Below, in pieces: positions 1 through 31,700 of a stretch of DNA of 64,000 nucleotides. Source of the DNA: Aplysia californica (taxonomy: Eukaryota); assembly GCF_000002075.1 (NCBI RefSeq), contig NW_004797758.1, positions 79,697-143,696 of the forward strand, in the 5' to 3' direction. Both the position numbers and the translations under genes were made by a program. The notes under the pieces are model-generated. The model searched no databases and had not been told where the DNA came from. It worked only from the letters and a program-made list of their open reading frames with translations. Position 1 is the first letter of the stretch, and every line of letters begins with the position of its first letter.

Positions 1-987
1 TGAAAAAAATTGGGCTATGAATTTGCACTACTATGAACATGTTTTGTAAGTTTCATGTCTTTTCAGCAATAACTTTCCATTTTATTGATGTCTGAAATCA
101 GTCTTTTTAGCATTTTTGAATTAACATTATGCATCGAGGAGTAATTTTTTTCCAATTTTAAGTCTCTGTATTGGCTTAATCTAAACTCTGATTGTCCTCT
201 TCTTGGTATTTTGCATAGTTTATACTGGCACCTGTTGAAACAAATGATAATACACACTTTATGTACCTGAATATATTTTCTGTGAACTCACAAAATCGCA
301 CTTTTTAACATGATTTTAAAGTTGCCAAAAATTTACGGCGTCCACAAATTTCAAACGCCTGTCATTTTTTTTATTTATTGTCCGATTTCTATAATTCAAA
401 CACCAAAGTTCATGGTTTGTATAGTTCTTTATGATGCAACAAACATAAGTTTGATCAAAGCACTTTGAAATTTGGGTTTGTGGTACCTAGTGTAAATAAG
501 TGATTTTCACCAAAACCCTGAATTACTATACTTGAGCTGATACCCCACGACACGTTGATACAACTTTTAATTTTCAAACACTTCTGTTTCACTGATGTTA
601 AAAATCTGAAAATTTCCAAAACAGAGTCAAGAGCTGAATACCGGGCATTTGATAGACATTACGACCAACACAAATATTACTGTCTTTGTATTTTCATTTG
701 ACATTTTCTTAAAATCCCGAACTTTCATTTTTATGCCTCATTTTGAGAATATATTTCCCATACACTGGGTCACAAAAAAATTTTTATTAAAAGAAGTGAG
801 CCCTTGTAATATCACAGCATAATAATTTACTGTGGACAAATACAAAGAAACACATGTGTACCCATTTTTTTAAAAACATATTGGAAGTTATAGAAGCACA
901 GACAAACTTGGCCCCGACTGTTCTTTGCCTTTTTTACCTGATGGTACAGGAAGAGAGTCAGTAAGTAAGTATGAGACCAGCACTCAC

Positions 988-3900
988 CATCAACAACATG
1001 AGCATCCGCCAGCAGGGCCAGCCGGTCCTCCATGGTGGTGACCACCTTGAGCTGCTTGCCGCGGAACACATAGAAGAGCTCGCCCTCCTCCAGCACGTGG
1101 TGCTCGCAGACCTTGCGCATTGAGCGCTTGAAGGTGTTGTGGCTGTTGGGCGGGTACTGGGCAGTCGCCTTGTACAACCAGATGGCAGAGTAGTAGGTAT
1201 CTAGCTCCATCTGAACAATACAGTAAAACCTTTATAGCACAAGCTTTCCAGGACCATAAAATTTGTTTGCGTTGAGCAGGCTGATCTTAGTTTTTGGAAG
1301 AGTTCTTGGGAACTTGCAAACACAAGTAGGTCATACAAGTGCTGAATATTAGAGGTGTTACTAGACAGCAACATACAAGTAAAAGAAGAAAAGGTGGAGA
1401 GATATGGACGATGGATGTTTGAAATGAAAGAAGGAGCAAACGACACCAGAGCACCCCACCAACCCCTCATGCAGACTTCATGTTAAGGGAAGTTATATTG
1501 TATAGAAAAAAGAGAAAAATAGAAATTGTGGAGTAATTCCTGAGATGACAGAATTGCCAGCGACAAAATAAATCAAAAGAGTCATGCTGAGTTATAATTT
1601 ACAGCAAATCAAAACACAAAAACCACCATAATTCAAAAGCTTATATGAGATCAAGAATTTTGGGGTTTGAACATTAACATAAAACCCAATTAAATTAATC
1701 TGCCTAGCACTCCAAAAGGAAAACTTCATTGCGAAAATGACATGGTTTGTGCACTGATGTACATGAGCACAATGTTCAAATGTGGGCTGAGTTTATGGGT
1801 GATGAGCTTTGTTTGACTGTGAAATGCAATTTTTTCTTCCTAAGTTTTAGGGATGGGATGTTGGCTTCAACCTGAATTATTAAATGCTCACCTTAAAGAG
1901 ATAGGCATCACCAGTGAGAGATAACTACCTGGGTAAGTAGACCAAGAGCCTTGAAAACTTCCCAAACAACCCACAAAAACGAAACAATGTGAACCAAACC
2001 CAAGGTCATTCACACCATAGTCTCCTCCCCCGTGATACAAACAAAAAAGCTCATCAAATGTCGAGCACAATGAGCAAAAGGACAACTTACCTCAACTTCA
2101 ATATCATCCTCGCTAAAAGCATTCTTGTCCAGATCACTGCTTTCTTTAACATTCTCTAAGGTCGCAGTTTTCTCATTCCTTGCTGCTGGCTGACCTACTC
2201 TGGGATTCGAAACTGAAAGCCATGATTTTCGTTTTGGACCACGCACTGCAAAAAATAAAAAAAAATAAAAAATTATAGATAGAACAAATCTCATGATCAA
2301 TGCTATTGTCTCCTTCACGTCAAAAACATTACAGACTTAACACTTACAGAACATTTTTCAGCTGTCTTGAGGTCAAAGAGTTGAAATATCTATTCAAAAT
2401 TATCAAACAATCTTTCCTGGCCTATGTTTAAAATTGACTTGTAAAGCCATATTCCTGGAAACCTAAAAACATCAAGTCTTGGAAGAATACTCTTTATCAT
2501 GTAATGGGATCTATACTTAAATGCATCTTTCAATCAGCTAGCAGTACAATGTTTTACTCACTTGTTTCTGTCTGTCAAATTAAAAGAGACCAGATCAGAT
2601 ACCCAATGAGCACAAAGAGCATCTCATTGCAAGAGACAAAAATGGGTATACAGAGGACACACAGAGTACCTCACCTTCCTTAAGACAAAGATTCTGAGAA
2701 ATCTTAATTTACTTACCAGAGTTACAACCCTCATGTGCCCCATCCTCCGACAGAGCTCCATTGTCCTCACTGCCTCCGCCCGCCGTTCTGTGAGATTTCT
2801 TCGGCTTACGACCTGATCTCCGCTGTGGGACACTCTCGCTAAGATCATTGACACTGGCCAGGGTAATGACCTGCTTGATATCAGGGACACAGCACTGGAG
2901 GTAGTCAGACATAGCCGCTTCCACACACTGCTCTGTCTGTGCAGTGGTCAAGGAGATTTCTCCATTACTTGAGTCTTTTGGAGGGAGGATAGAAGCAGGA
3001 AATGATGGTTCTCTGGAAGACAAAAAATTTGGGTGAATTAGCTTCAGCTTTTTAAGTATTATTTCATGACTGATTTAATTCCACGTTCACAGATTTCAGT
3101 ACTGTAAATAATTAGGAAAAATTTTTAATCACATTGATGCTGCTAAGTGAACACCTTATTTCACAGCATTCTTAATATTTTAACTTTTTATCTCCAGAGG
3201 GGGCTTTCCCACTATGCCAGGGCCCTGTTTTAGTACAAAACTTGAAGTAGACATATACGTCTCTCGACTGGTCATCAAATCAAACAAATGAACCTATTTT
3301 GATAGCTCTTTTTCTGAGGAAAGAACTCCCAATAAAAGAGACCTGTTTTCAGCAATTACTGAAAATTAGTGTAATACTGAGTGCAAATTCCTCAGCTCAC
3401 TATTGGCCCACTTCAAAATTATAAAGTGCATGTGCAACTACAACATCCCTTTCAAGATAACAAACTTTTCAGCAAGAATGCTTACAATATCTCATGCATA
3501 CAGCTTTAAAAAATGGCAAAGCAGTGAAACTTTCAACCTTTTACATGACTGTACATGCACCCTTACACACACACACACACACCTGTTCATCAACAGGTAA
3601 GCCGGGCTAAAGTCTGAAGCAGCTGTGAGCGAGTTGCGGGCTGGGATGAGGCAGAGGTCCAGACAGGTGTGCCAAGAGTCTGTGTACTGCTCTGAGAAAC
3701 TCTGCACTAACTGTAGCAAATGGCTCCAGTGCTCATCTAAATGGAAAGAAAATTTGTATTTATTTTTTCTCATTAATTTCCTAATGCAAATGAAGAAAAG
3801 ACTGTAGTCATTCTTCTTCATTAATCATATCTCTGTGCAAACTGAAAAGCAATTGAGCTTCTCTTCTTCTTCAATTTCCCTATGAAATTCTACAAAGCTC

Positions 3901-6900
3901 ACAAAATCCACTGACATATTATGAATAAATTTACAAAAACTGATAAAGGATTGAGATGCTCTTCTACAATAATATTTCTTTGTTAAATACTCACAAGTCC
4001 ATTGACATCTTTATTAGCTGAGTGGTTGCTATGGCACATTTCATACCAAACCTGCTAAACACAGAGACAGTTGAGGTTGGAGTTTAGCAAAACCCTTTCT
4101 TTATTCAGAATATCTTTCCTCAGCCCAAAAGCCCAGAGTAGGAGACATAGATCTTTCAAATGATTTATTCTCCATCTCAATATAATTTAAGTACAGTATC
4201 ATTTGAGGTACCAACTAACTAGGTGGTATGAAAGTGCCACTGGAATGTTCTGCATTTTTCTTCCCTCTGTTGCTTCTGTCAGTCTGGCATGCTTTCCCAG
4301 CACTAACCTCCCACTTTGTTTTTTATGAAATGTAGACGTTTTAACACTAACATCAATACAACTGAGATCATTTAGAAGGTGGACTTTGACCCTCACTGTC
4401 TGAGCCAATCCAGGCTGAAATGGATATTCGTCTCACCAGAAAGATCAAGATCCTCAATAAAAATTCTCCCTACTACACAAAATCAAACTCAGGTCTTCTG
4501 CATGCGACTGTAAAACGCCCAACCGCAACACCATAGATGCCAGTCCTTCATACTTTAAAGTCATTTATTCTCTCATACGTAGTTTAACTCAGACAAAACC
4601 AAACAGCAAAACAACCTACCTACAGGGTTGTACTTCTCTAGACTAACTGCCACAGCGTAGTGCTGCAAGTTCTGAGCAATGCCACCACTGTCCAGGCTCT
4701 GATCCTGAAGTAAGTCATTGGCCAGCAAAATCACTTCTTCCATCACACCATACCTGTGCCACAGGGAGACAAACACAAAACAGACAATCATATCGATTTG
4801 AATATTTCAGAACGCTCAGTTTTTTTCTCCAACTTAAGAAGTATAGATGGAGTCTGAACACACTCCAGTCAAACACATAATATTCACTTCAAGTATAGTT
4901 TTAAAACAGATCAAGAGCGTTTCTGAGCACATACTTGACACAAATTTCAATAACTTAAAACACTTTTTAGGGCCTGGCTGAAGAGTCATGCTCTAAAAGA
5001 GAATAATCAGGCTAGGTATTTCTATGTACAATTAATGTTATATTGCAATGACTTTCAGTTTACCAACCCACCTTGCGATGAGTCTTAGCAGAAACTGTGA
5101 AACGTATTTCTCGTTGAGCTTCTCAAGAACGTGAACCTCTGGCCACTTTGAGAAACCGTCAAGAGCAGCAGCCACATAAGTTTTTTTCCTCTTTTTATAC
5201 TGTAGTGGGCCTATGATTTGCACCTCAACCTAGAAAAAAAAAACAAGCAAGGAAAGAACTATAAGAAATAGGCTTCAATGCCAATCACCAAAGAGCAGGA
5301 ATGGCAAAATCTCTCAATAGCCACAAAAGTCCCAACAGATCAATTTGGAAAAAATCATAAGTGTCAAAGAAAAATATAAAAGCAATAAGAAAAGAAGAAA
5401 CAAAAGCCTGCACAAAAAGGAAATGTGAAATTCAAACACATTTTATTTACACAGAATACCATAGAAAACACCAGGGTATCCTTATTCAATTTGCTCTATT
5501 TTAAGACACGAGTAAGACATAAATTCTAATTTCTCAATTTTTTTTAAAATTACATTTTTTTTCTACTCTAATATTCTGTACTTCTGTGTACTTTAGAAGA
5601 AACGATTATTTGCTGAGTCTGAAACACACTCAAATCAAAATTATCTTTAAAAAAAAAAAAAAAAAGAAACAATGAAATATCACAGAATTTCCACACAAGC
5701 AATTAGTTTTTTAAACAGATTTGTGGGCTTCAGAAGACTGATTTTTTTCTCTCTCTCTGTGACTTACAGTACAGTGGCAATTTCTATAATTACAGGAGTA
5801 ACTGTTTTAGCTACGATGGGAACACATCTATCCAACACAAGGTACATAAGGCTAGTGTCCACAAACCTTTTGCCAAAACCTCCGAGCTACGTCAAAATCC
5901 ACTCTGGGATCAAACACGGAATCGGTGACAACAGAGCTTGGGTCAAAATCAAGGTCAGAGTCAACTGTTTCTGGTTCGTGTAACTCAGCAGTCACAATAT
6001 ACTGCATCTCCGTCGAAACATCCTCTTGTTTAGCTGTGACTGGTGCCAGCTTATCCTGTAGCTCTTTTTTCTCCCCACCAGTAGCACTTCCACAGCTCGT
6101 TGTGGGGATTTCCGGTTCAACAGCCGGTACAACTTCGCTGAAGTGGCTCTGTTGAAAATTTGACACTGCAGGACGATTTGCCAGGCAAACAACACAGTTC
6201 TTGAGGACTTTCCGCACTGTACTGGCCATGCCCACCCAGTAATACTTGGAGGACAAAGCGTTTAAGGTACGTTCGGTTCCCATATGAACACCTGCATAAT
6301 GAAAGTTCAGAAATGTATTAAATTTAAAAACAAAAGCTTTTGTAAATGAAAGCATTCAAAAATGCATCGCACAAGCTCAGGAAGAAATAGGCTTACATTT
6401 CAAGTAAAATTCATATAATTTCAAAAATTGTCGTACTGAAATACAAGAGGACAGATAGGGCTCTCACAGAGTCAATTTTACTTTCTAACATATATATTAA
6501 TTAATATTGCACTATGATATTAGATCATCATATCTTTTTAAAAAATGGTTAAATAGTAAGGGTTTAATGCCCCTATCAACACTTCTAGTAGGTAAGCAGC
6601 TTAATTTGAGAGGCAGGACCTCCAAATTGAATATTCATCTCCAAAAGGACAGAGCCAAAAATAGGAAATTCATGTAAAATGCCTTTCCCAAGGGCACAAT
6701 GTTGGACTGAGGTGAGGCTCAACATACCATAGAGGTCTATAAAAACTATCAATAATATTTATGACGTGGCGCACCAGCAAGACTCAAGAACAGGGGTAGC
6801 TTTACTAACTGGATTTTTAGAATCATTTCTTTAGCTTTCCAGTGACACTGAATCAGCACCAAACTTTTCCAGCTTTTTTTTCCCGTTTTTCCAACCTTAA

Positions 6901-9218
6901 AATGCTAAATTAATCTTAGACTAACCACGTTCTGATTTCTTTACACATTCATGAAGTGTCTGCTCACAAGAAATGAATCATGTATCAGTTGTCATTGTCA
7001 TCCACATGTCACAAGAAGTTGGTCTCTACCTCTATGTATCTGCATAGTTTTCATATTCTTCCTTAGTTGTATGCAGGCTGCCAGTGAGACCTGGCATAAA
7101 ATCCATAAAAAAACAAGGCCCCACTGCCGCGATATAGATATGTGACTCAAAACCACACACAACCAGTTACATAGATTATTGTATTCATGTCTGCGTATAA
7201 ACATTTCAAATCGTTTTGCAGTCGTTATAAACATAATATAGCAAATTCAATGACAAAAGGTTTCAATATTATGGTGTGGAAATGGAATTGTGTAAATAAT
7301 GTAATGGCTGAATGATGAGTATAAAACGTTTTCAATGTGCTAAAAATCACACAACACTGCAAACTTGGCGTGAAAATCACACACAGGGCGGGGAGTGGAC
7401 GAGAGGAGGTGTACCACGGGGTGGGAAGAAGAATAATTATTGGCTGAATGAGGATTCNNNNNNNNNNNNNNNNNNNNNNNNNNNNNNNNNNNNNNNNNNN
7501 NNNNNNNNNNNNNNNNNNNNNNNNNNNNNNNNNNNNNNNNNNNNNNNNNNNNNNNNNCCCCCCTAAAACTTGAGTGTCGATTAGAATCGACTAAGAGACG
7601 AAAATATCTATTAATGTACTCTCTAAGGGGGTCGTTTTTAACAAGTACTGAGTACTGCCAGTATCAATTAGTAGTCCACCACTACCCCCCCCTGAAATCC
7701 CCCTGAAATCCCCCAGATTTTTTTTAGGTAAAAAAAAGTCATTAAATGCAAATGGTCAAGTATAGTTCGTATGAAAGTATATCCATAAATCTATAAATAT
7801 AAACTTTATATTTAAGTAATAATTTGCGGTGGATATAAAGTCAGAATTTGTGTAAGAACGGATCCGTAGTTTGTGTAAAGCAGACTAAAAATGAAAAGGA
7901 AAAATGTTTTAGTTCTGAACATTCAGACAGGTCCAAGAGTAAAATACCTTCCTATTATTATTTGACATCGGGAGGGGGGAAGGGGGGTCCAAAGCACAGA
8001 AATTTTTAGTACTGCAGTACTATCTAGAGTAATTGTACAGGGTCGGGCAGCACGGTTTTTTTTTTTGCTGTCAGGCACAGGAGTACAAAAAGATCGTTTA
8101 AAACTTTGTTTAAATATCTAGCCCCAAAAGAGTGGCACACAAAGCTAAAGCAACCTCCCTTACTTTCGTTGAAACAACAGTTACGGCGATATTTTGCTAA
8201 AAATAGTCCTTAAGACAGCTTTTTCTTCATCAACTGAGCAAAACAGCATGAAGCTCTTTCCCCGGAAGAGTCAACATTGGTTGTGGATGAAGGCTGTGGC
8301 CTAGAGAGTTATTTGCATATGAGGCCCTATCAAGGATGAAAGAGAATTTGCAGTCGCCGTTTTTGCCCAAATGGGTGGTGCCCGGATTGTAACAAAATCC
8401 GTAGTTTCTCATTCTTCGGGCACATATAAGATAATATAGTGCCAATGGTTGTTTTATAGAGAATCAACTATTTCAAAAACCATGTCATTAGGCCTAATTT
8501 ACGCAGAAATGGAGGACGGTATACCACGGTATTTTGTGTTTACCCATCAATAAAATACTAAAAATTTAAGAAATTGGGCACTCAGTTACAGTAACTATGA
8601 CACCTAGAATCTATTTCTATAGATCTAGATCTAGATATATCTCTAGATCTAGATTTTCTAGATCTAGAATCTAGATTTAGATCTAGATTTTAGATTCTAT
8701 CATGTGTGGTACAGGAGGAAAAGTAAAAGAATAACAATTATTTAAGAGTGAGGGAGAGATCTAATATTTTTTATGACTGTGTCGGTCATGGATTCATGGA
8801 CATGGAAGCTCTAGTCTGCTAGAATTCTCAGTGTTTTTTCTTAAAATTGTACACACCCCATCCCAAAAAGGACCCCAAAATGAAAAGTGACGCCACAGAA
8901 AAATGGCCCTGGCAAAAGAGGCCTACCTTCAGCAGTAACATGCATCTGTGAGACGACAGAAAACTGGGTTTTTGGTGTAATGACAGCTCGACGTAAATTC
9001 GCCTTATCTGAGCCCGGGTTTGGATCCGGTGGTTCTCCTTCCAGTCGCTTGGGACGAACAATGTAGTGTAATTCTCCATCTTCGATTTTGAAGGACTCTG
9101 ATCTCTTCCGCACCGACCGTTTATCTGTCGGTGTCGACCCACTTGGGTAGGTGCCGCACAACAGATATTGCTTGATAACCGCAAGGCTGATATGCGTATT
9201 ACTAGATTTTCGCCGCAT
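988..9218 (-). CDS. Domesticated Gypsy/Ginger-type integrase-like protein (GIN1-like), multi-exon, 3'-incomplete (continues past the left edge)
   Basis: Exons (minus): 9218-8927, 6291-5867, 5229-5072, 4753-4620, 3736-3583, 3012-2717, 2245-2091, 1210-988. All introns are GT-AG and the phases chain (1,0,2,1,2,1,0,1) into at least 612 open codons. Integrase motifs: YLLCGTYP..KRSVRKRSESFKIEDGELHY; HHCC finger (QMHVTAEGVHMGTERT..KYYWVGM..VLKNCVVC); FWQKVEVQIIGPL; DGFSKWPEV; IARYGV; W..CL..ARNS..SDFSPAYLLMNREP. Exon 8 starts a second N-terminal module. Confidence 0.85.
7458..7557. other. Assembly gap (100 N) in intron 1 of the integrase-like gene
   Basis: Run of N bases. Confidence 0.99.
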
Positions 9219-11879: not shown

Positions 11880-14800
11880 TCATCATCATCATGGCCTTTC
11901 TCACCCTGGGTCAGGATATAGGCCACGAACAAACACTCTCCACCTTTCCCTATCCTGGGCTAGTCGCTTGATGTCACTCCGCGTCTTCCCACTTTTCTAT
12001 ACATCCATTTCCGTGACTCTTCTCCAGGTTCCACGAGGTCTTCCCCTTGATCTTTTACCCTGTGGGTTCCAATCTAACACTTTTCTTGTTATGCAGCTGC
12101 TTGACTTCCTGAGAGGGTGTCCAATCCATCGTCAATGTCTTCTTTCCGCCTCATCTCTGACCGGCCTATGTCTGGTTCTTCCTTTATCTAATACTTCCTC
12201 GTTGGTGATCCTGTCTGTCCATTTGATCCTCAGCAGCCTCCTCAGACACTTGTTCATGAAAACCTGGATCTTCTTTATGCATGTATGGGATGCGTTCCAC
12301 GTCTCACATCCATACAACAAAACTGTCTTCACATTTGAGTTGAAAATTCTAAGCTTTGTTCATAATGAGATATCCCTGGTCCTCCAAATCCTGCTCAAAG
12401 AAATAAATGCAGCCTGTGCCTTTCCAATGCTGGACTTTATTTCAGCGCCTGTTCCTCCCTCTCTGTCAATTATATTCCCCAGATAGCAAAAGGATTCGAC
12501 GTCTTCTAATGCATTTCCTTGTACCGTGACCTGCTCCTTTCGCAGTGCATCTATCCTTAGGACTTTCGACTTTTCGGGGGTGGATCCTCAATCCAACAGA
12601 CTCTGATAGGCTGTTTAAAATTGTTGTCTTTGCTTTCATCTGTTCCTGAGTGTGTGACAGAAGCACCAAGTCATCTGCAAAGTCCAGATCATCCAACTGT
12701 GTCCATGGGGTCCACTGTATACCATTTCTGTGTCTTCTGGTGGTTTCCTTCATCAGCCAGTTGACTGCCAATATGAAGAGGAACGGTGATAATAAACATC
12801 CCTATCTCACACCAGTCTTGATGTCAAAGTTGTCAGTACAACCCTGCAACTTGTCTCTTCGTACATGCTCTTGATGAGGTTCACCAACTTCTGTGGAATT
12901 CCGTGGCGTCTCAGTATCTTCCATAGTGTTGCTCGGTCTATACTGTCAAAAGCCTTCTCATAGTCAAGGAAGTTGACGATCAGCTGAGAGTTCCACTCCA
13001 GGGACTGTTCCACAATAATCCTCAGCGTAGCAATCTGGTCGGTGGTTGAGCGAAACCAGCCTGTTCATCCCGTAGTCTTGGATCCGTTGCTGTCTTGATT
13101 CTCTCCAGAGTGATTCTGTTGAAGACCTTACCTGGTATTGAGAGAAGAGTGATCCCTCTGTAATTGCTGCAGTTGCTGAGATCCCCCTTTTTTGGAAGCT
13201 TCACAAGGTGTCCTTCCTTCCAATCCTTTGGGAACTTGCTCTCATTCCAGATCCTGGTAAACAGTGGGAGGAGGATGTCTGCCGTCACATTGGCATCTGC
13301 TTTTAGGGCTTCAGGTGGAATCTGGTCAGGACCGGCCGCTTTACCTTTGTTCAGCTTCTTAATGGCATCCAGAATCTCTTGTTTTGAAGGAGCATCACAG
13401 CAGATTGGTAACTCATTTCTTGCTGGCAGGATGTTTGGTGGGTTACTCGGTGGTGGTCTGTTCAGGAAACTGTTGAAATGCTCTACCCATCGTTTGGACT
13501 GAGCTTCCTTTCCAAAAATGGTTTTCCCCTCTTGGTCCTTTACTGATACTTCAGGTTTCCCGTATTTTCCAGAAAGTGTCCTTGTGATCTGGTAAAGGAT
13601 TCGCATATGTGCCTTCCTACTGCTGCTTCCTCTGCCTTCCCAGCCAACCTGTTCATGAATTCCTCCTTGTCTTTTCTTAGTGATTTCTTGACATCTTTAG
13701 CTGTTGTCCTGTACTTTTCCAATGCATCCGCTCTTGATCCTCTTGTTCTACTTGCATTCGCTTCTGCCTTCAGCTATCTTCTTATCCTAATTAAATCCAA
13801 TGAGTGTTGACTAATCCATTCCTTGTGCTCCCATTTCTTCACACCGAGTACTTCTTGACAGGTTGATGTAAAGACTTCTTTGACCTTGGTCCAGTGTGTA
13901 TCCACCTCCATGTCTTCCTCACCAAGATCCGCCAAGGGTTGAAATCTGTTCCTCAACTGCAGTTGAAACTCCTGTTTCTTGTGTCCATCTAAAAGACTTA
14001 CTTGGAACTTCATTCTTTTTGTTCATGTTCTGGTTCCATGCTTTTTGAGACGAAGCTTGAGTTTTGCTAACAGCAGATGATGATCCGATCCAACGTCTGC
14101 CCCCCTCTGTACTTTGACATCTTCCAGTAAACGCCTGAACCTACGAGAGATACAAAAATGATCGATCTGGTTCTCTGTCACTCCATCCGGTGATACCCAA
14201 GTAGCCTTGTGGATCCTCTTATGGGGAAAAACAGCCTCCGATGACAAGACTGTTGAGAGCACAGAGATTTGCAAATCGCTTACCGTTCTCTTTCATTTGT
14301 CCCAGGCCATGTTGTCCCATGATTCCCTCGTAACCTACGTTGTCCTGACCAATCTTAGCATTAGCATCTCCCATTATGATGTTGGTAGTTTGTCGATGAC
14401 CCCTTGGAGCCGGCTGTAAAAAGTATCCTTGTCATCATCCGAAGCATCGTTTGTTGGGACGTAGATCTGTACTATGTTCATGTTGATGCTCTTACTTCTG
14501 GTAGTGAAAGAAGCGATGATGATCCTCTCCCCCTGTGGTTCCCATCCTCTAAGTGACTTCTGTTCATACTTACTCAAAATAATTCCTACTCCCTCCCCAT
14601 GGTGCTTGTCTTCCCTCCCAGAATACAATACTTGTTCCCCCGAGCTGAGCTGCTTCTGTCCAAACTGTATCCAGTGGGTTTCGCTGACTCCTAGTATGTG
14701 CAGCCTGTATCTTTTCATCTCTTGTGTCACTTGAGAACTCTTTCCTGCTTCATACATGGTGTGAACATTCCACCACGCAATCTGGAGAGACTTGTTCGAC

Positions 14801-15098
14801 AGAGAAGGTTTTGGGTCAGAAGAGTCCTTTCGGCTTTGTCCGCTGTCCTTCATTGTTCCTGCTGATGCAGAAGCTCCTTCGTCTCCCAAGATGGAAAAAT
14901 TATAAGGCATGTTTGTTGGTGTTTCTATAACTCTCCTTTTTTACTGGGTCGGGTAGTTGGCCCTCCGCAAACTGTCACTTTTCGGGTGGCCAGACCTATG
15001 CACTTTTAGTCGCCTCTTACGACACGCAGTATCACAGCAGGTGATTTTTTACTCCCCCATAGTAAAACTATGTGGCCCCCCCCCCGCCTGCAGGGGCG
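11880..15098 (-). mobile_element. Full-length, decayed RTE-clade non-LTR retrotransposon (APE endonuclease plus reverse transcriptase)
   Basis: APE motifs WNVHTM, LGVSETHW, QIDHF, SDHHLL. RT motifs KLPKKGDLSNCSNYRGITLLS, FLDYEKAFDSI, LDFADDLVLL, LLYGCETW. The ORF is split by frameshifts and stops. 3' (TGA)n tail at about 11877-11893. 12-bp TSD GACCCTGAATCA at 11868-11879 and 15099-15110. Confidence 0.93.
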
Positions 15099-15545
15099 GA
15101 CCCTGAATCAACTGCTAGTTAAAACTGTTGGGATCCTGCCTTCCTTCATAAGCAGACATTTACCCCTCCTGGTCCCTCTGGACTAAAAAAAGAAACGTTT
15201 GTTCTGTAAAAGGTCACTTTAATTTGTTTCTTCTTTGTAGAACATATTTCTGTTACAGTGGTCATCAAAACATGCAGAATATCAGTTACCACTATGAGTT
15301 TATATTTTTATATTAGGGGGCCTACGTGTACATGATATATATTATTAGTAGCTAGCGCTACTACCAATAATTTTTTTGTGTTCCTTTTTATTAGTACAGT
15401 CTCTTTTAGTTCCAAGACGACCTTGCCTGTGTAGTGTATGTAATATAAATAGTCTTATTTATAACTATCCAGGAAACCTTCAGGTTTGGACAATATATAA
15501 TATTCTTCAATAAAAGATAAATTTGATGCTTTACAGGTCCATATC

Positions 15546-18500
15546 ATGTCCGACTCTGATGATGAAGGAAACGATAATATTATACCTATCACAGAATGGC
15601 CCATAAACCCAAGTCCACCTTCTGCTTCCAAGAAAGACGAAGACGTTGCTGAAAAATGTGCTACAAGAAAAATACATCACAGTCAAGAATATGAGCATTG
15701 CTCGAAGGTTAAAAAAGTACGACTAGAAAGCGGAGAGCTACCATACGGCAATCTAGCAGGGCACTATGATGAGATGCAAGAGCAAGAAGCCATGGTACAG
15801 ACTAGAATTGCAAGATGGTGGAGGAAATATAAACAAGGTGTAGAAACAAAATCTATGCCTGTCACCACAAATCCGAACACTACTCTGTTATGGATTTCAA
15901 GGTAACTCAAGAAAAAGACACTAAAATATAAAACAGCACTAGATCTATCTTTCTCTTGCTAATTTTGTGCAAGGGCATATAAATGAATGTATAGACAATG
16001 CCGATGAAGACCGGGTGCCATTTGTACAGATCTTGTCAGTTTGGTAATGTTTGAGCATTTAATCAGCTGCTTGCACTGTATGCTTCCCAAGAAGATGAGA
16101 ATGTTTCTTAGTGTTCTATAGTCTGCTGGGGTAATAATATAGTGTAAAACGCAGAGCTTGCTGTAGAGCAGGGTTATGCGCTATACAAAAGCTATTTATT
16201 ATTTACTATTAATATTATTATTACAGGTGGCCATATTGTACAAATGGCCATCATGGCAGGTTCGACTGTAATAGATCTATATATATCTGTCATGACACTG
16301 TGAAATCAGACTCTCGTCAGTTTTTGGGTGTGTGGAGTTGGTATCATCTTAAGACTTGTTTTTTTATCTTGTTTTCTATGAATAAATTATCCGTCTATCT
16401 TGGATAGAAGTCGGGATATTTGTAGTTGAAGGAAGTGGGGGTCATCTGTTTTCAGAGGCAAATTAATAGCTGCCAAAATTTGGTGACTTACGAAGCTTGA
16501 GAGTCCTTGTAAACTGCCAATTTTTACATTTTTTGTGCCTTTGATCAATGTTTTTTTAGTAAAATCCACTCATATATTGTGTTTTTAAATAGACATATAA
16601 GGTCCTGAGCCTGAAAAAAAAAACCCTAAAAATATTTTGCCCAATGACCATAAAAATGCAGACTTCTTTGATTTGATTATTTCGACGAGCACCTTATATC
16701 ACTACAATGCTTCACATAATTAAATATGATATACAGTTGAACCTGCTCCAATGACCACTAAATCCAAGACAATCACCTATATAAATTACAACCTCACCCT
16801 TAGTGGTTGTTTTTTGTGTAGTATAATGACACTGTCCAAGAAGGCCACCTGTTTAAGATGACCAACTATTCTCGTTGACAATGGATGGTCATCTCTTGGA
16901 CAGGTTTGACTATATATACATGTATGTAATAAGTTTATTTAATTTTCACTCATTTTCTATTTCTTGCCCTTTATTTAAATTCTATGTGCATCATCTTACT
17001 TACATTTTCTTGTTTCAAACTGTTTCACAATGTAGCCTACTATTTCCTACTCTTTCAGAACATGATAATTTAGTTTTATTTATCTAAAAATATTCTTTTT
17101 AACTCTTTCAGAACATGATAATTGAGTTTTATCTAAAAATAATAGGTTCGTTGTCCCAGTCTATTGGGACACCTTCAGAAATGATTTAGAGAAATACAGA
17201 CCAAAGTTCCTCAACTACATGCAGGTTTCAATGTTAATTGGCGTGTTAGATACAGGTAAATAAATAACTTTGTGTGAGACAAATACAGGTAGAGAGAGCT
17301 CATGCAGAGTGTCAAGTCAATAAATGATAATATCTTGGCTGAGTCTGTTTGTTTAGACATTTTGCCATTATCATAAGAGATTTCTTGTCTATCATTGTGT
17401 TTATTTTAATTTCATTAATTTTTTAAAAAAATTTTAGTAGAGGGTTTTACGGCGCTCGCAACAGCATAAGGTCATATGAGCGCCAAGAGGTGGGTGTCAA
17501 CAGAGAAGTCCTTACAGGCATCAGACTTACTCTGCTCACCTCTCTAGCTTCAACAGCACAAGGTCTGCTTCGACTATGAAGGCACCCCGGAAATAAAGGG
17601 TCACAAGAATGGCAAACATACATAAGAAGTAAAGGTAAATGACAATAGTAAGGATTAGGAAAGAAAAGGCAGCAGTTATGAGCATGACATGATGAATCAG
17701 CCCATTTACAATTCTACTGTGCTTGAATGAGAAATGTCCCCCCTTTGAATGGCCTAAAGACACTACAGTCAGTGGCACTGCCCCGGGGGGGGGGGGGTGT
17801 TTCTTATATTTATATTAAACTTTTTTTGTTTCACCCAGGACTCCAGAATGCCAAGTTTTTCTACTTGAAGAGGAAAAATCCCTGAAGTTCAGGTTGCAGG
17901 CTCAACATGGTGTGACAGCAAACTTATATGCCGCCCTCGCTAGTGTGGAAGACTATTTAGGACAGATGGATTCAGCTCTCACGAATATCAACAAAGCTGT
18001 TGCCCTTGACCCAAACAGTAAGACTGATCGGACATTTAAGTTTTTAAAAAAAAACTCATTATATATTTGTGTATATTAGACCTATGTATCTTCCTCTATC
18101 TTTTTTATTTCTTTGAGCTTTGTTCTTTAAAATCAGTTTTACGACTGTGTCTTTGTTTAACATTACATTTTTAAAAGTACTTTTATCATTTAAACACCGT
18201 TTTTCTGGTGGTGGTGGCATTAGTAGCCCAGTGGTTAGGCTACCGTACCCATAATTGTGAGATGTTGTGTCCTTAAGAAAGACACCTTACACAAATTTCC
18301 TATTTAGCTTGGGCCCCTCAGAGATTTTTTTTTTAGGGTTAGTGTTTTATGGTGCTCGCAACTGCATAAAGTCATATGAGCGTGCGGTACACACATAAAG
18401 CATTTTCAGTTTGGCAGGAATTAATTTTGAATTTTGCCTGGGTGGCAGCCAAAGCTTACTCTTGTCGATTTCAGGACCACCAAGGGATCTTTAACGTGCG

Positions 18501-21500
18501 CCACTTGCACACAAGGTCTCTGAGTCTTTATCTCTCTTATCCGAGAACGTTAGGTGTTTGATCTTACCTAAGATCAGGGGCCTGGCTGAAAAACAGTATA
18601 GTATGAAGGAGCCAAGGAGTAGCAGCAGAAAGGCTGCAGAAAGAGTCAAGAGCTCAGAGGAGGGGCAAAGTGGGGTGGGGGGCAGAAAGCCAAGACAAAA
18701 GCAGACGACAGAGCATGATTCGAAGATGTATGTAAAACCCAGAGGTTCCACCTCTTAAATAACCTTTTATGTGTTGATAGGGTCATTTAACCTATACTAT
18801 TTTACATTTCACATTTTTCTGATGGTATTCTGCAAGTACAACAACAAAAAATCAGATGTAAATGAAGAATACATCACAGCAATTTAAATCACAATTTAAA
18901 AATTGCCCTTTTCATTTCCATACTTGCTGCACAACTTCCCTGTAGAATGGTGTGTTTGCAATTTATCTTTGAGCCTTTAGCTGATGCCACATTTCTGTAT
19001 TCTCTCTCAGTCTTGTAACAAATTAACTACTATATTTCCTTCCAAATTGAAAGTCTGACTACAGATTCTCACAATAACAAACTGATCACCTAGCGTTTCT
19101 TCTTACGTTTTCACAGATTCTGAATATCAATGGTTGCGGGAAAAACTGTCCAGGCAGAGCCGAGTCATTGAAATTCAGTCAGATAAACAAAATGCCTTGG
19201 AAACAATGGACTTAAAATTTCCTCCAGTCTCAAAGGTAAAACGCAATTGGTACCTATGGGCACTCAGCAATTGGCTATCTGTAATGTAATGCCAGAGAGA
19301 TTTGAGTTTAAATATGTTTATTACTCCCATATCGACACAATTTAGGTCATTTCAGAGGTGGGCTTCTTCAGCCTTGCCTGTTAAGACCAGCCCTGGCTGA
19401 GTGTGACACTACATCTGACCAGAAAGACAGAGGTACTGAAGAAAATTCTCTTCCCCACATGATTACTAGACTCCCAATTTTTTGTGTGCAACCGTAAAGA
19501 GTCTTTATCATAATCTGGATACGCGAAGGTGTTACCTCTGGCTCAGAGGTACAATGACCTACCATTGCTTATGGTCTGCTGTGGTCATATGCCATATTTA
19601 GGCCAGTCCATGCCTTGATGTTATCATTCTAGATTGTTCTTAGTCCACTTGTAGCTCTTTTGCCCCACATGTTGCCTTTGAGTATTTCAATGGCCACCAT
19701 TAAAACTCAGTCACAGGTCAAGGAGACTTGACCTTGGTCAGATTCACTTTTGTTAATGAATATGGCATTGAAGCCAGATTTTCTTTTCTTTTGTTCTGCT
19801 TGTAAATTATAACTGTGGTTTGTGAATTGTTGCTAGTTTACTTTTTTAGATGAAACCTGCTGTTACTTTTAAATATCAATAAATATTCAGAATCCTTGTG
19901 AATTCTTTTTTGACTAGCACATTGTGAAGTTGGAAAAAAAATGAAGGGGCAGTGGATTTTTGCAGGCCATAATCTTTTAGCCCCTTTATTGCGTTGTACT
20001 CGTATTTCATATGTCTTGATAATCCACTGCCCAGTTCGCTGTAAATGTATCTCATACAGAGACTAAGACCTGTAATTTGTTTCATTGATATCTCGGCTTT
20101 TGAAAGTTAATTGTTTTAGCCATGCAGTCATAGGCATATCTATTCATAGATTATAAGATGAGAAGTGCTTGTTCTAAATCCGATTTTTAAAAAAAGAAAA
20201 GTGTCTTGTTTTTCTTACACACATCATACCAGACGATCAGAGTGGACAAGTTAAATTGGAACTTTAGTCTCAATACTTTCAAGTTGTTTACATCACAAAT
20301 GGTTTGTTCTACCAGATTCTTAGATTTCTCTTTGTATTGACAACGATACACCATTTGCCATTCTCTTTGGCTTGGCGAGGAAGTAACCCTTTGCCAGTTG
20401 TTTCTTTCCATCGTATTCTTTGGTTTTATTTCTGGTACTTTATTATTTCTTTAATTTTTTTTCTTTTTCCAACATGTTTTTAAACATAAACCTATAGGTG
20501 GATCGAGTCTCCATCAAAGACCTAAGTGAGAAAGATTTTCATGAAAGATATGTGAAGACCCACAGACCAGTTATCCTGCTTGACCTCGTCCAAACAATAA
20601 CATCAACTCCCTGGAATTTGGACTTTGTCAAAAAAATTGCAGGTACATGTTATAGAAACTATTTATACCATCGATCATAGTCAGTTAAATATAAATATTT
20701 TTATTTATTTAGATGATATGATTACTTCTCATAACAGAACTTCTATTTGTTTTAAAATTTAATCAACTTTAATTGCTCCAGATTTCGATTCTATGTTCTT
20801 TTGGAATACTTTACAACAGAATGGCATATGTCATTTAACAGAATGGCATATGTCACTTTACAGCATGGCATATGGCGGAGTCTTACAATAACCAGTCGAT
20901 ATATATATATGTGTAGTCCAGGATTATCATCCCTTTTGGTAGGCGTATGAGCGTATGTGTCACAACGCGGTGGGATCAGGCGCTCGTCAATTTTTGGCCA
21001 TTTGGAGTTATTGGTATCATCGAATAGCTAATTCATTTGTCTTGCTGTCAATGAAAAAAAGTACCCATCTATCTTGAATAGAAGTCAAGATGATTGCGAT
21101 TAAAGGAGGTGGGGTCGCCTGGTTTCAGTAGTAAAATTAGCAAGAAATGGCCACCAAAGTTTGATAACTTCAGTAGCTTGAGAGTCCTTGAAAACTGAAA
21201 ATTTAGAAATTTTGTGCCATTAATCAACGTCTTTCAGTAAAATTCACTGGGAAATGTGCTTTTATATGGAGATAAAATGTGTTTTTTTCTTTTTTTTTGT
21301 AAAAATGGCAAAACTTTTGCAAAAAATGCCTATTTCTTCGATTTCAATATTTTGGCGAGCGCCTGATTTGACCATGATGCCTCACATATGATAAGTATAA
21401 TATTTTTAATAGATTGCCAACAGTCAAGTCAAATGCAGCATTACTGTGGATATATCCCCTCGGAGTGACCCCCCCAAAACCAATGTAAAAGCTAAAATTA

Positions 21501-22745
21501 TATATTTTTTAAAATTGTTATGCAACAGGCAGCAAGAGAGTGATGTTGAAGAAGCAGGTACCCCTGTCTGCTGAATGGGCTTGCCTTGAGGACAGTCGAA
21601 CAAGCACTGTGGAAGAGTTCATTGATTCTGTGACAGAGGGGGAAACTGATGATTATCTCTTTGATTGGAGTCTACCCCTTCACTGTCCCGAGCTTTCTTC
21701 AACCTTAACAGTACCTAGTTATTTTGCAGGTAGATTAAGTGTTTGCCCTGAAATTATTGAAAAACTAATACTGCAGCCATTTCTTTTATATATACAGCAG
21801 AATCCGCTGAAAGTGATGTTTGTGGGACTGCTGGATTTTCTTCAGTATGTAGAGGTTGCTTAAATAGAAGGAAAAAAATCTGAGGTTACCAATGTTCACG
21901 GATTAATCGTGTTTGGTTGAAGTGGACTCCACTCTGTGTGTGTGTGTGTGTGTGTGCGTGTGTGTGTGTGTGTGTGTGTTTGTCATGTCAGGGTCACAGG
22001 GGTCAGCTCCCAGTCAGTGTTCTGGCTGGGCTGACTTAATTTATGGTACTTTTTAAATTTAAAGTTTAAGATGTGTCCTTGTACATTTAGTCATTATCAT
22101 GTTACACACTCATAGCACAAATTTCTGATTTTGAAACTAAAAAAAAACCAATCACAATAATTTGCCTGGTTATTTGATAATGTGCTCTGAAGTCTGCAAT
22201 GCTAAATTGTGATTTATTAGACTAGTGTGGAGGAAAAATAATCAATACTAATAACTAACGGCTTGACAAAATCATTGAACTTTTGGAACATGAACAACAT
22301 AACAAAGATGGAACGAGGTACACACAAAAGACGTATCAGTGCAGTTTATAGAAAGCTGCGTATCTGCAACTCAATCTACGTTGCTCATAACGTGCGGTGA
22401 GTTATTCTGAGACACAGCACAAGTAATTCCTTCACATTCAACTTTATATGTCAAATACAATAAGAAATATTCACATATTTGCATACAAAGATTTAAGTGG
22501 TTGTCTCACTACACAGAAATACTTGTCAATTTTAGTGCCACAGTGCCAGAACACATGATTTTCAATGTAGTTTGTTCATTTTGCAACCTTCTTTTAAATC
22601 TATTTACCTGGATATGAAAAGAAAGGTTAATTTCAAAGAGATATTTCTTCATGCACACTTCATGAATTGCGATTTGTCAAGAATAACAAAATGTTTACAT
22701 TTGCACTATATTTTTAAATATAATATACAATTGTGTGTAAACGTT

Positions 22746-28712: not shown

Positions 28713-31700
28713 CAGGGCTGCCAACCATTCCAATTTTTTCGTAATCATTACAATTTTTTAGCTTCACTACGAAATTCAGATCTTAAGGCGATTCATTACG
28801 ATTTTTACCATCAGCAGATTTTTGGCTCTTTTTTTATTTTACAAGTCTTAGTGCAGACCTGTAAATCGTCCGCCAATAGTCGGAAAAACGCCCATCTCTA
28901 AATCAACTCCCCACCCCCTAAAAAAAGGAACAGCTGGCCCACTTCGTGCGAGTTAGCCATGTCCACAATAATACCATACATGAGTAGAAGCATCGCTGCT
29001 ATGCTGCTGAGACCCAAGCAGTCTAAAAATTGATTTTATTGATCGGCGTGAGATGGTGTGCCTTCACCCCGCTCGCTTCGCCCAGCTCGATGCTTCCGCC
29101 ACAACCTCTCTTTTGCCCCATTCAGACACTCGAAAGAATTAAATTGTTGTGGTGAAGAATGCGAAAGACGCGTAGTAGGCTACCATTTAGGCCTAACGAT
29201 GCTCTTTTTTTGGCAGCCATTATTGTTTATCATTCTGATCACCTCGGCATGGTTGTCGATAAGTTCAGTCTACTTCAAAGCTTGATGTTTGTTGTGCACT
29301 TAGTGATGCTCGATAAGTTGATGCACGTGGAAGTTTTTCTGGATCTCTACCTAGACTTCATTCTAGTTTGAAGCTTGTGATTTACCTTAGGCCTAGATCT
29401 AGGCTTTTTATTTAGCGCAAACATTCAGTTCTCTGCATTTTTTCTTTTAAAAATTATCTACATTCTAGATCTAGATATAATCTTGATTAGAATTAGATCT
29501 AGCGTGATCAGTGTAGAATTCTACTGTTAGATCCAGATCTACGCCAACAATGTTGTCAAAAAGCTTCTCAGCCTGCTATGAAGAAACCTCGCATTGAGCA
29601 GAAGTTCAAAGCTGACTACTCTGTTTCATGGCCGTTCATTTTTTCTTCATTGAAATTGGGTGACACTTACGCATTTTGCAAAACATGAGGAAACATGTGG
29701 GCTCAAAGATACGTCAACTTAGAGCTAATGCACAGAGCCAGATGAAACCGATCACCTTTCTTCAAGATTCCTCAGTTGTGGATTTTGAAAACAGTGTGAC
29801 CAATGCAGAAATGCTGCTCATGAAGTTCATCATTGGACACAATATTCTTATTTCTGCCACTGACCATGCGGGAGAACTTTTCAGAGCTATGTTCCCTGAC
29901 TCGAGATTGCAGCGAAATATGGAAGTGCATGGACTAAGACCACTGCAATATCGAAATGTGAAAGTGAGCAGATGAGTGAGGAGCTGGCAGGAAGAATGCG
30001 GACTCAGCCCTTTTCATTAGCGACTGATGGAAGTAATGATTCTGGTGGCAACCAATTGTACCCTCTTGTTGTAAGGTGCTAGAACCCTGAGGAAGGGAAA
30101 GAGATCACAGATGTCCTGCATATTGCGGAATGTAAGGAGTCATCTACGGGAGAGCACATGTTCAACATCCTGGATGAGGGACTGAAGAAGCATTCCATTC
30201 CCTGGTCGAACTGCTTGTCATTTGGATGTGGCAATGCTTCTGTGATGATTGGGAAGCATAAAGGAGTGGTAGCTCCAAGGCTGCCCCTGTCATCCTCTCC
30301 ACATCGCAGCAAAGCAAGACAGCTCACAACTTACTGTGAATGTTGAAGAAGTTTTTATTAATATGCATTATTATTTTGACAAAAGCTCTAAAAAGGAAAA
30401 ACGAATTTGAAAAGTTTCAGGTGGCGACTGGAGTGGAGCTTTCTAAGATCTTAAAACATGGGGAAACAAGGCGGTTGTCTTTGTCATCCTGTATCAACAG
30501 ATTGTTACAAAAATGGCCTGCTCTGGAAGCCTTCTTCAACGAGGAAAACAACACGACCCCAAGGCTTCAGCAGATCATGGCCTTCTTTGCCAATCCAATG
30601 GCTAAGGCATACTGCCATTTTCTGAACAACGTTCTCCCTGTATTCATAAAGGCAAACACATTTCTGCAAACTGAAGATCCAGTATCCACCAGATGAAGGA
30701 GGCCCTTCAGAACATCTTCCTGGAACTTTTGGTTAGGTTTGTAAAGCCCAAAGCGGTCTCAGACTGCAGCAATATCTTTGAGGGCAATCATGGAGAGAGA
30801 ACCAACCAAAAACACAGACAGGATGTTATAGTAAGCAAGGAGGTGAGAGATCACATCAGTAAAAAGGCAAGATTACTGCTGATGATGAGAAAGGTTTCTT
30901 TAATGAAGTTTGACTTTTTTTTTTCAGAGGCATGCACCTACATTTCTGAAAAGCTTCCCCTGTAAGACAAAGCCTTGCTCATGCCCAAGTCATTGATGTG
31001 AAGACCAGGATGGAACAGTCATACAACTCACTTTAACATTTTGTCAGGAAATTTCCATGCCTGATTGGAGCTGAAGAGAGAGACAATCTGGAGGTAGAGT
31101 TTTCTAAGTATCAGACAGATAAGCTGAATCCACCAATTTCCAATGCTGAAAGAGTGGATGTTGATGGCCAGCCAAAGTACAAGATACTCTCCAAGGCCAT
31201 GCTGGGATTATTTGTCATCCCACACAGCAGTGCAGGACGTGAGAGAGTGTTCAGTTTGGTGAGGAAAGCCAAGATTGAATTCCGAACCTCAATGTTTACA
31301 GTAATCCTCTCGTCCCTGATGGTCCAGAGACTGAGAATGCTGTCAAGAGTCAAGAGAGGAGGTGTGCTACAAGGCCAAGTTCACAAAAGAGCAATTGAGC
31401 CGGACAAAGAACGCTTGCATGCACTCTTAGAATTCAAAGGCTTAACTGTTGAATTAACATTGTAAATAGTCTGTAAATAGAAGCTAGGCCAGGCTAGTGA
31501 TTTGGTAGTGGGCCTACATGTGCAGTGTAGATGGGTATGTAAAGAAGTATAGCGTGGATTGAAGTATGTTACTTGTTGTGAATTTAAGGACTGTGTAAAT
31601 ATGTTTTTCTGGAGTTGAGGATGGAAATAGATTTGGCAAAAAATCCTTGATAAAAACGAATTACTGTCACCAGAGCCTGAAATGCAACCGTAAAAGGCTA

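Follow-up and report, generated by a model that had tools for sequence, protein, structure and literature searches.

A spliced Aplysia gene, of likely Ginger1-type transposase origin, that combines three YPYY+H2C2 modules and six C2H2 fingers with a single integrase core devoid of its catalytic residues

Introduction

Ginger1 transposases carry a YPYY motif directly ahead of an H2C2 zinc finger, followed by an integrase core, and their coding regions contain introns; in the available passages of the source, the elements are bounded by terminal inverted repeats of 40-270 bp (Bao et al. 2010, PMC2836005). The same passages give the combination of YPYY motif and H2C2 finger as a trait of Ginger1 transposases and of some Gypsy integrases. 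Ginger1 domestications described in the portions of the literature available are either chordate (GIN1, GIN2 and two Ciona genes) or crustacean (Imagin), with one front-end module each. GIN1 and GIN2 are vertebrate host genes of Ginger1-type origin and unknown function, with introns, a retained HHCC finger and a retained GPY/F domain, a chordate range and, in those parts of the sources, no C2H2 array described (PMC2836005, PMC3424704, PMC3670739). Imagin, from malacostracan crustaceans, is an old invertebrate domestication of Ginger1, a conserved single gene whose cytosolic product of 585 aa is described in part of the source as keeping YPYY and H2C2 in one module, having lost DDE and lacking C2H2 fingers (PMC12863088); in the passages of that paper searched, no mention of molluscs, Aplysia or C2H2 was found. 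In SCAND3 and KRBA2 a Ginger-derived integrase-like domain, of Ginger2 origin and mammal-specific, is fused to parts of host zinc-finger genes, and the available text describes no repeated YPYY+H2C2 modules (PMC3575427). A survey of transposon-derived transcription factors that covers Aplysia and Octopus mentions neither Ginger, GIN nor H2C2 in its main text (PMC10027918).

Here we describe a locus of Aplysia californica that resembles these systems in part. The window, i.e. the whole stretch of DNA analysed, comprises 64,000 nucleotides (contig C488:79697-143696; window base 1 is C488 79697). Exons and introns beyond its left end are given in contig coordinates.

Gene structure and transcript

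The exon under study, exon 8, is a 223-base minus-strand exon (window 1210-988) with borders AG/ATG and G/GT. It belongs to a gene of 21 GT-AG exons whose translation is identical to RefSeq XP_005105778.1 (P0001; uncharacterized protein LOC101859807, Aplysia californica; 1419 aa). P0002 is also matched exactly by the 21-exon chain when an alternative acceptor is used, and the NAGNAG acceptor of the last exon (C488 62775/62772) accounts for the RefSeq isoforms of 1420 and 1419 aa. The features are as follows.

Exon 1, window 8927..9218, minus strand: opens with ATG and encodes the YPYY motif of module 1 with the first His, H93; phase 1 end in G98; residues 1-98 of P0001.
Exon 2, window 5867..6291, minus strand: H100, C130 and C133 complete the module 1 HHCC finger (Pfam PF17921, E 3e-11), then linker; phase 0 end at the start of the core.
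Exon 3, window 5072..5229, minus strand: integrase core (weak rve match, E 0.0075); site of the first catalytic Asp is Gln243.
Exon 4, window 4620..4753, minus strand: core; site of the second catalytic Asp is Leu302.
Exon 5, window 3583..3736, minus strand: core helices; region of the catalytic Glu shortened, with Glu338 as a possible remnant.
Exon 6, window 2717..3012, minus strand: end of the core (REP motif), an extra helix, a basic cluster and the start of a disordered linker; no GPY/F after it.
Exon 7, window 2091..2245, minus strand: poorly conserved linker (18-28% identity to orthologues); phase 0 end; spliced to exon 8 (X3 contig).
Exon 8, window 988..1210, minus strand: encodes the YPYY motif of module 2 with the first His, H609; phase 1 end in G613.
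Intron 8, window 1..987 and continuing outside it, minus strand: contains a run of 1531 N beyond the left end of the window.
Exon 9, C488 77741-77542, minus strand: phase 1 start; H615, C646 and C649 (G-E-H ... HW ... CPEC).
Exons 10-11, C488 75838-75595 and 72258-72050, minus strand: module 3.
Exons 12-15, C488 between exons 11 and 16, minus strand: acidic spacer.
Exons 16-19, C488 68524-64768, minus strand: six C2H2 fingers.
Exons 20-21, C488, stop codon at 62250-62248, minus strand: C-terminal motif.

The encoded protein thus reads, in order, [YPYY+H2C2], integrase core, [YPYY+H2C2] twice, acidic spacer, six C2H2 fingers and a conserved C-terminal motif. A 3559-nt contig of run X3, a run that we took to be RNA by guess, is free of introns and covers exons 7, 8, 9, 10 and 11 in five consecutive pieces. 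The initial annotation had proposed that exon 7 is spliced to exon 8, and the contig bears this out. Exon 8 has its ATG directly after the acceptor AG, and the possibility that it opens a separate gene is contradicted by its junction with exon 7 in the contig. A hidden exon or second core within the N run of intron 8 is likewise ruled out, exon 8 being joined to exon 9 in the transcript without extra letters. The pieces of run X7 are each confined to a single exon, exon depth is near zero in two raw-read RNA runs, and none of the sequence records listed with the last exon is recorded as RNA; for the junctions within exons 1-6 and downstream of exon 11, support comes from the database model, from compatible phases and from orthologues.

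The gene is single copy in the Aplysia genome (four exons searched). Terminal inverted repeats were not found around it, and its 12-kb flanks match each other only through dispersed repeats. Elsewhere in the window, a head-to-head neighbour gene lies at about 15500-21900 on the plus strand, with weak TPR matches in exon 17822-18076 and an exon at 21516-21860 that may be JmjC-like, for which there is no Pfam match. A broken LINE remnant with frames that by eye resemble an endonuclease and a reverse transcriptase occupies 12466-14940 on the minus strand, and a hAT transposase remnant (dimerisation domain, E 0.00026) lies at 30340-31465 on the plus strand.

A module repeated three times

The YPYY+H2C2 module occurs at residues 9-136, 541-652 and 688-797. 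The initial annotation had read exon 8 as a parallel of exon 1, and the two minus-strand peptides indeed share 42% identity over 48 aa (BLASTP, E 4e-10 in a single-pair comparison). Searched against the 927-Mb genome, exon 1 gave two matches among three candidates scored, namely its own locus and exon 8 (E 0.037). Neither exon has a Pfam match when searched alone. In each case the exon breaks off after the first base of a Gly codon (phase 1), and this Gly sits two residues ahead of the second His: G98 lies between H93 and H100 in module 1, and G613 between H609 and H615 in module 2. The phase 1 exon that had been predicted to follow and complete the HHCC finger was present outside the window as exon 9, so the refuting case in which no such exon follows can be set aside. 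A second core had been envisaged after it; exons 10-11 carry a third module instead. This third module and the six C2H2 fingers had gone unseen in the initial annotation. In module 3 the phase 1 intron falls in the same inter-histidine loop, in Aplysia one codon nearer the His. By a hand estimate from 20 introns in 4257 coding bases, an intron would coincide exactly in module 2 with a chance of ~0.005 and would fall within one codon in module 3 with a chance of ~0.014, jointly ~7e-5. Moreover, phase 0 is shared by the ends of exons 2, 7, 9 and 11, which makes modules 2 and 3 two-exon cassettes (0-1-0) that could be copied in frame.

Profiles of one module score the others at up to 52 bits, compared with at most 8.8 bits for shuffled modules, although some single pairs are low; Aplysia module 3 reaches 11-17 bits on the profiles of the other two. 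AlphaFold predicts the same order of helix, helix, three strands and three helices in all three modules (pLDDT about 70-90), and the best Foldseek rows for the modules are the Ty3 and PFV integrases, at E 0.02-0.1 only. ESM Atlas searches gave only leads below 0.9, to H2C2 and rve clusters. PF17921 stretches number two in Aplysia and three in Octopus, Littorina and Bulinus (P0024). The HHCC zinc ligands of modules 1 and 2 are complete wherever gene models are complete. At the end of module 3, most molluscs have two cysteines side by side, and CxxC is kept in Elysia and Lingula; in Aplysia the module lacks two zinc ligands (L759, W793).

A single integrase core without its catalytic residues

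The initial annotation had described one polypeptide with an anciently repeated, intron-bearing unit, and this stands (23-26% identity between modules). Its wording of two or more integrase modules applies to the front end, which is present three times, but not to the core, which is single and without a catalytic set. With the core profile, every full-length orthologue examined yields one core and no more. No core accompanies module 2, and the question of whether it keeps DDE is moot. When a resident Ginger1 copy whose D, D and E are intact serves as reference, the first catalytic Asp is absent from 9/11 aligned orthologues (present in Octopus and Lingula) and the second from all eleven (kept in 0/11), with an acidic residue three places beyond the second site in heterobranchs. 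At the third site, Glu is found in 9/10 in one alignment, whilst the site is not alignable in a wider one. No GP[YF] follows the core in 10/10 orthologues. Pfam searches of the protein gave no match to OTU or Ulp1, nor to a protease, reverse transcriptase or RNase H.

In the first AlphaFold model the core was of low confidence, with no Foldseek match at E <=0.001. A deeper alignment gave a confident fold for the Bulinus core that matches the PFV and Ty3 integrases (best E 4e-9), and the core is thus predicted to keep the integrase fold. The models are uninformative on domain packing (pTM 0.26 and 0.31), and a predicted complex of two cores with module 2 and Zn, made without use of the alignment, scored 0.02, which speaks neither for nor against binding. 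Solved PFV and Ty3 integrases, with their N-terminal extension and NTD (PDB 3oym, 4e7k, 7q5b), resemble the predicted module and core folds; they differ in that they are catalytically active, pair each core with one NTD and carry an SH3-like domain at the C terminus. On the core profile a resident Ginger1 copy scored 34.7 bits, against at most 15.7 bits for LTR-type frames (one versus seven elements), a preference for the Ginger1 copy.

Fingers, acidic spacer and C-terminal motif

The six C2H2 fingers are joined by canonical TGxKP-type linkers, and their best matches among solved structures are DNA-binding arrays. The array is the best-conserved part of the protein, with 75-85% identity among heterobranch snails, compared with 70-80% for module 1 and 18-49% for linkers. 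In the last two fingers (5 and 6) the residues predicted to contact bases are near-constant in the nine molluscs tabulated. The acidic stretch holds 40 D/E in 161 aa, and the protein also has basic clusters resembling nuclear signals. After a divergent low-complexity tail, the last exon (outside the window, C488 about 62340-62260) encodes the motif Y.VEC...LTEAD..AI..LA.AS, which has no Pfam match. It was present in 8/10 orthologues tested, is recognisable in bivalves and Lingula, and is looser in Lingula.

Orthologues and age

We identified orthologues in Lymnaea, Bradybaena, Candidula, Biomphalaria, Bulinus, Physella, Elysia, Littorina, Octopus, Haliotis, Babylonia, Patella, Sinanodonta, Pecten and Lingula, those of Physella, Elysia and one Bulinus being incomplete gene models. 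The combination of three modules with one core and 5-7 C2H2 fingers recurs in Littorina, Octopus, Haliotis, Babylonia, Patella, Sinanodonta, Pecten and Lingula, so that the layout spans gastropods, two bivalves, Octopus and a brachiopod. The fingers of Lingula are the most distant (37% identity), at 120 bits compared with 48-93 bits for non-orthologues. Proteins P0012-P0019 match through C2H2 fingers only and were set aside as orthologues. Two gene models each in Bulinus (P0007/P0024) and Littorina (P0010/P0070) suggest local duplicates of the gene. By the early Cambrian the lineages of molluscs and brachiopods were already separate; since the layout is common to molluscs and Lingula, the gene is likely older than that split and over 500 million years old.

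Of 2071 matches in one search, the best 150 were examined and ten of them named, so the gene may range more widely. Other proteins with at least two YPYY+H2C2 modules include P0048 (Lytechinus, 1408 aa), P0054, P0064, P0077, P0088, P0098, P0137 and P0147, several without a core and some with C2H2 fingers; the module may serve repeatedly as a building block. We do not regard the long proteins that carry 2-4 cores as tandem integrases: two that were looked up are gene models from pseudoscorpions, one of them named K02A2.6-like, and such proteins are probably joined LTR elements.

Origin of the gene and of its modules

Taken as a whole, exon 8 is part of a spliced host gene that likely derives from a Ginger1-type transposase and whose product is likely a nuclear, sequence-specific DNA-binding regulator rather than an integrase, a reading to which we give a probability of roughly 0.7. 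The order of motif, finger and core, and a coding region broken by introns, are likewise described in the available passages for Ginger1 (PMC2836005); the gene differs from active Ginger1 in being single copy, without terminal inverted repeats and with catalytic residues lost. It also lacks the GPY/F and OTU/Ulp1 domains and has three front-end modules and a C2H2 array. Nor is it a Gypsy LTR retrotransposon: it has 21 exons, whereas Gypsy pol is intronless and encodes a protease, reverse transcriptase and RNase H, none of which gave a Pfam match here. An orthologue of GIN1 or GIN2 would be marked by a single module, GPY/F, three conserved GIN introns and vertebrate synteny; the three modules, the missing GPY/F and the C2H2 array set the gene apart from these.

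A resident Ginger1 family offers a direct comparison. The three copies examined (L032 2357-5863, L033 2294-6302 and L034 1107-5915; genome G000, contigs C590, C8 and C43) have terminal inverted repeats of about 140 bp, a YPYY exon, a phase 1 intron before the finger and an OTU-like tail; stops or frameshifts occur in copies, and D-D-E is intact in L033. The module profile also matches the YPYY exon of L033 and L034. The family fits Ginger1-1_AC in the portion of Bao's paper that holds Table 1 (PMC2836005). Its intron lies about 14 codons upstream of the first His, outside the inter-histidine interval in which that of the gene falls, and the family is therefore not the donor. We propose that a Ginger1-type transposase with introns became fixed beside a C2H2 array before molluscs and brachiopods diverged. 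Its front end would have lain on two exons, with phase 0 introns outside and a phase 1 intron between the histidines, and this pair would have been copied twice without shifting the frame.

Could modules 2 and 3 instead be separate transposon captures, or have been shuffled in from another domesticated gene? We regard this as unlikely, and it would change the account of origin only, leaving the role as it is. The modules are no closer to each other (25-27% identity) than to 37 outside modules (24-28%), a free tree scatters them, and repeated modules without the core of this gene exist in other proteins (sea-urchin P0048; P0054, P0088, P0098). However, all three share the phase 1 intron in the inter-histidine loop and the phase 0 ends, and exon 8 is the sole other match of exon 1 genome-wide. 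In the module tree, which is under-resolved (110 columns, 67 rows), an origin in one clade is neither rejected nor shown (p-AU 0.68), the one-clade tree stands 13.4 log units above a quick free search, and modules 2 and 3 of Lingula do not group with their mollusc counterparts. Internal duplication is thus favoured; because module identity and tree neither show nor reject a single origin, it rests mainly on the shared intron sites, which are known for Aplysia only.

Proposed role

The gene has the marks of a domesticated gene, being fixed, spliced and deeply conserved, having lost mobility and having domains conserved above linkers. It also has the layout of a C2H2 transcription factor, with a tandem array and canonical linkers. 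A domesticated Ginger1-type transposase turned DNA-binding regulator would be the best reading of these comparisons. Given the C2H2 array, the acidic stretch and the conservation, the product is, judging from its sequence, most likely a sequence-specific nuclear factor. The C2H2 array would select a DNA site, and the dead core may retain the dimer surface of an integrase. The three zinc modules could serve as repeated units of contact with protein or with the DNA backbone, like the NTD and extension of foamy-virus integrase, and cofactors would be brought in by the acidic spacer and by the helix motif at the C terminus. As far as the accessible part of the source goes, DNA is contacted by the N-terminal extension in foamy-virus integrase, and the cores dimerise (PMC3738965). 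From the models, YPYY may be the counterpart of that extension.

More tentatively, and on balance doubtfully, the Ginger1 YPYY+H2C2 module may have been freed from its enzyme and turned into an effector domain that can be repeated within the C2H2 proteins of invertebrates, much as SCAN arose from Gypsy gag. The present gene would then be a founding member that predates the mollusc-brachiopod split, sea-urchin P0048 and similar C2H2 proteins with several modules but no core would be further members, and the multivalent modules would recruit partners or jam transposon integration complexes at sites chosen by the fingers. We raise this because repeated core-less modules are also found in P0048 and several other proteins.

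A role in genome defence appears improbable. Here the fingers would hold the protein on transposon DNA, leaving the three modules and the dead core to block the assembly of Ginger1 or Gypsy integration complexes as a multivalent dominant negative. Integrase multimers are built by NTD and core (PMC3738965, in part), the Aplysia genome holds Ginger1 copies with intact D, D and E and at least 150 H2C2-bearing element matches, and the retained HHCC ligands of modules 1 and 2 would suit a decoy. Yet the near-fixed recognition residues of the fingers across molluscs fit stable host targets better than fast-changing element ends, the conservation of module 1 among heterobranchs shows no sign of an arms race, and the modules are only about 25% like those of elements.

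In our analysis Imagin would be the nearest described analogue, and its cytoplasmic location counts against a nuclear regulator. By that analogy the protein might bind RNA or form a cytoplasmic scaffold, its zinc modules holding RNA, as Imagin, with YPYY, H2C2 and a dead core, accumulates in the oocyte cytosol according to the available passages (PMC12863088). We think this very unlikely here, as the six-finger array with its TGxKP-type linkers resembles solved DNA-bound arrays and the basic clusters look like nuclear signals.

Lastly, the initial annotation had inferred a tandem integrase, a covalent pseudo-multimer, which we considered also in a form that might still be catalytic. N-terminal modules are indeed repeated within one chain, the modelled core keeps the fold, and acidic residues occur near the second site in heterobranchs and, in one alignment, at the third site. 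Yet the single core per chain, the loss of the catalytic Asp residues, a Glu placement that fails in the wider alignment, the missing GPY/F domain and a C-terminal third given over to C2H2 fingers make it highly improbable.

Significance

We found no description of this layout and lineage in the full-text literature, including by three locus identifiers; subscription papers or supplements may mention it. Domesticated Ginger1 genes are known; the tripled front end combined with a dead core and a C2H2 array, in a mollusc and brachiopod lineage, appears new. Automated annotation conceals the gene under labels such as 'Gypsy retrotransposon integrase protein 1' and 'zinc finger and BTB domain protein 49'. 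The gene makes visible a route from transposase to regulator, by loss of catalysis, frame-safe duplication of an exon pair and fusion to a finger array, and it is testable in Aplysia, Lymnaea, Biomphalaria and cephalopods. Moreover, its span across molluscs and a brachiopod would place it among the oldest Ginger1 domestications.
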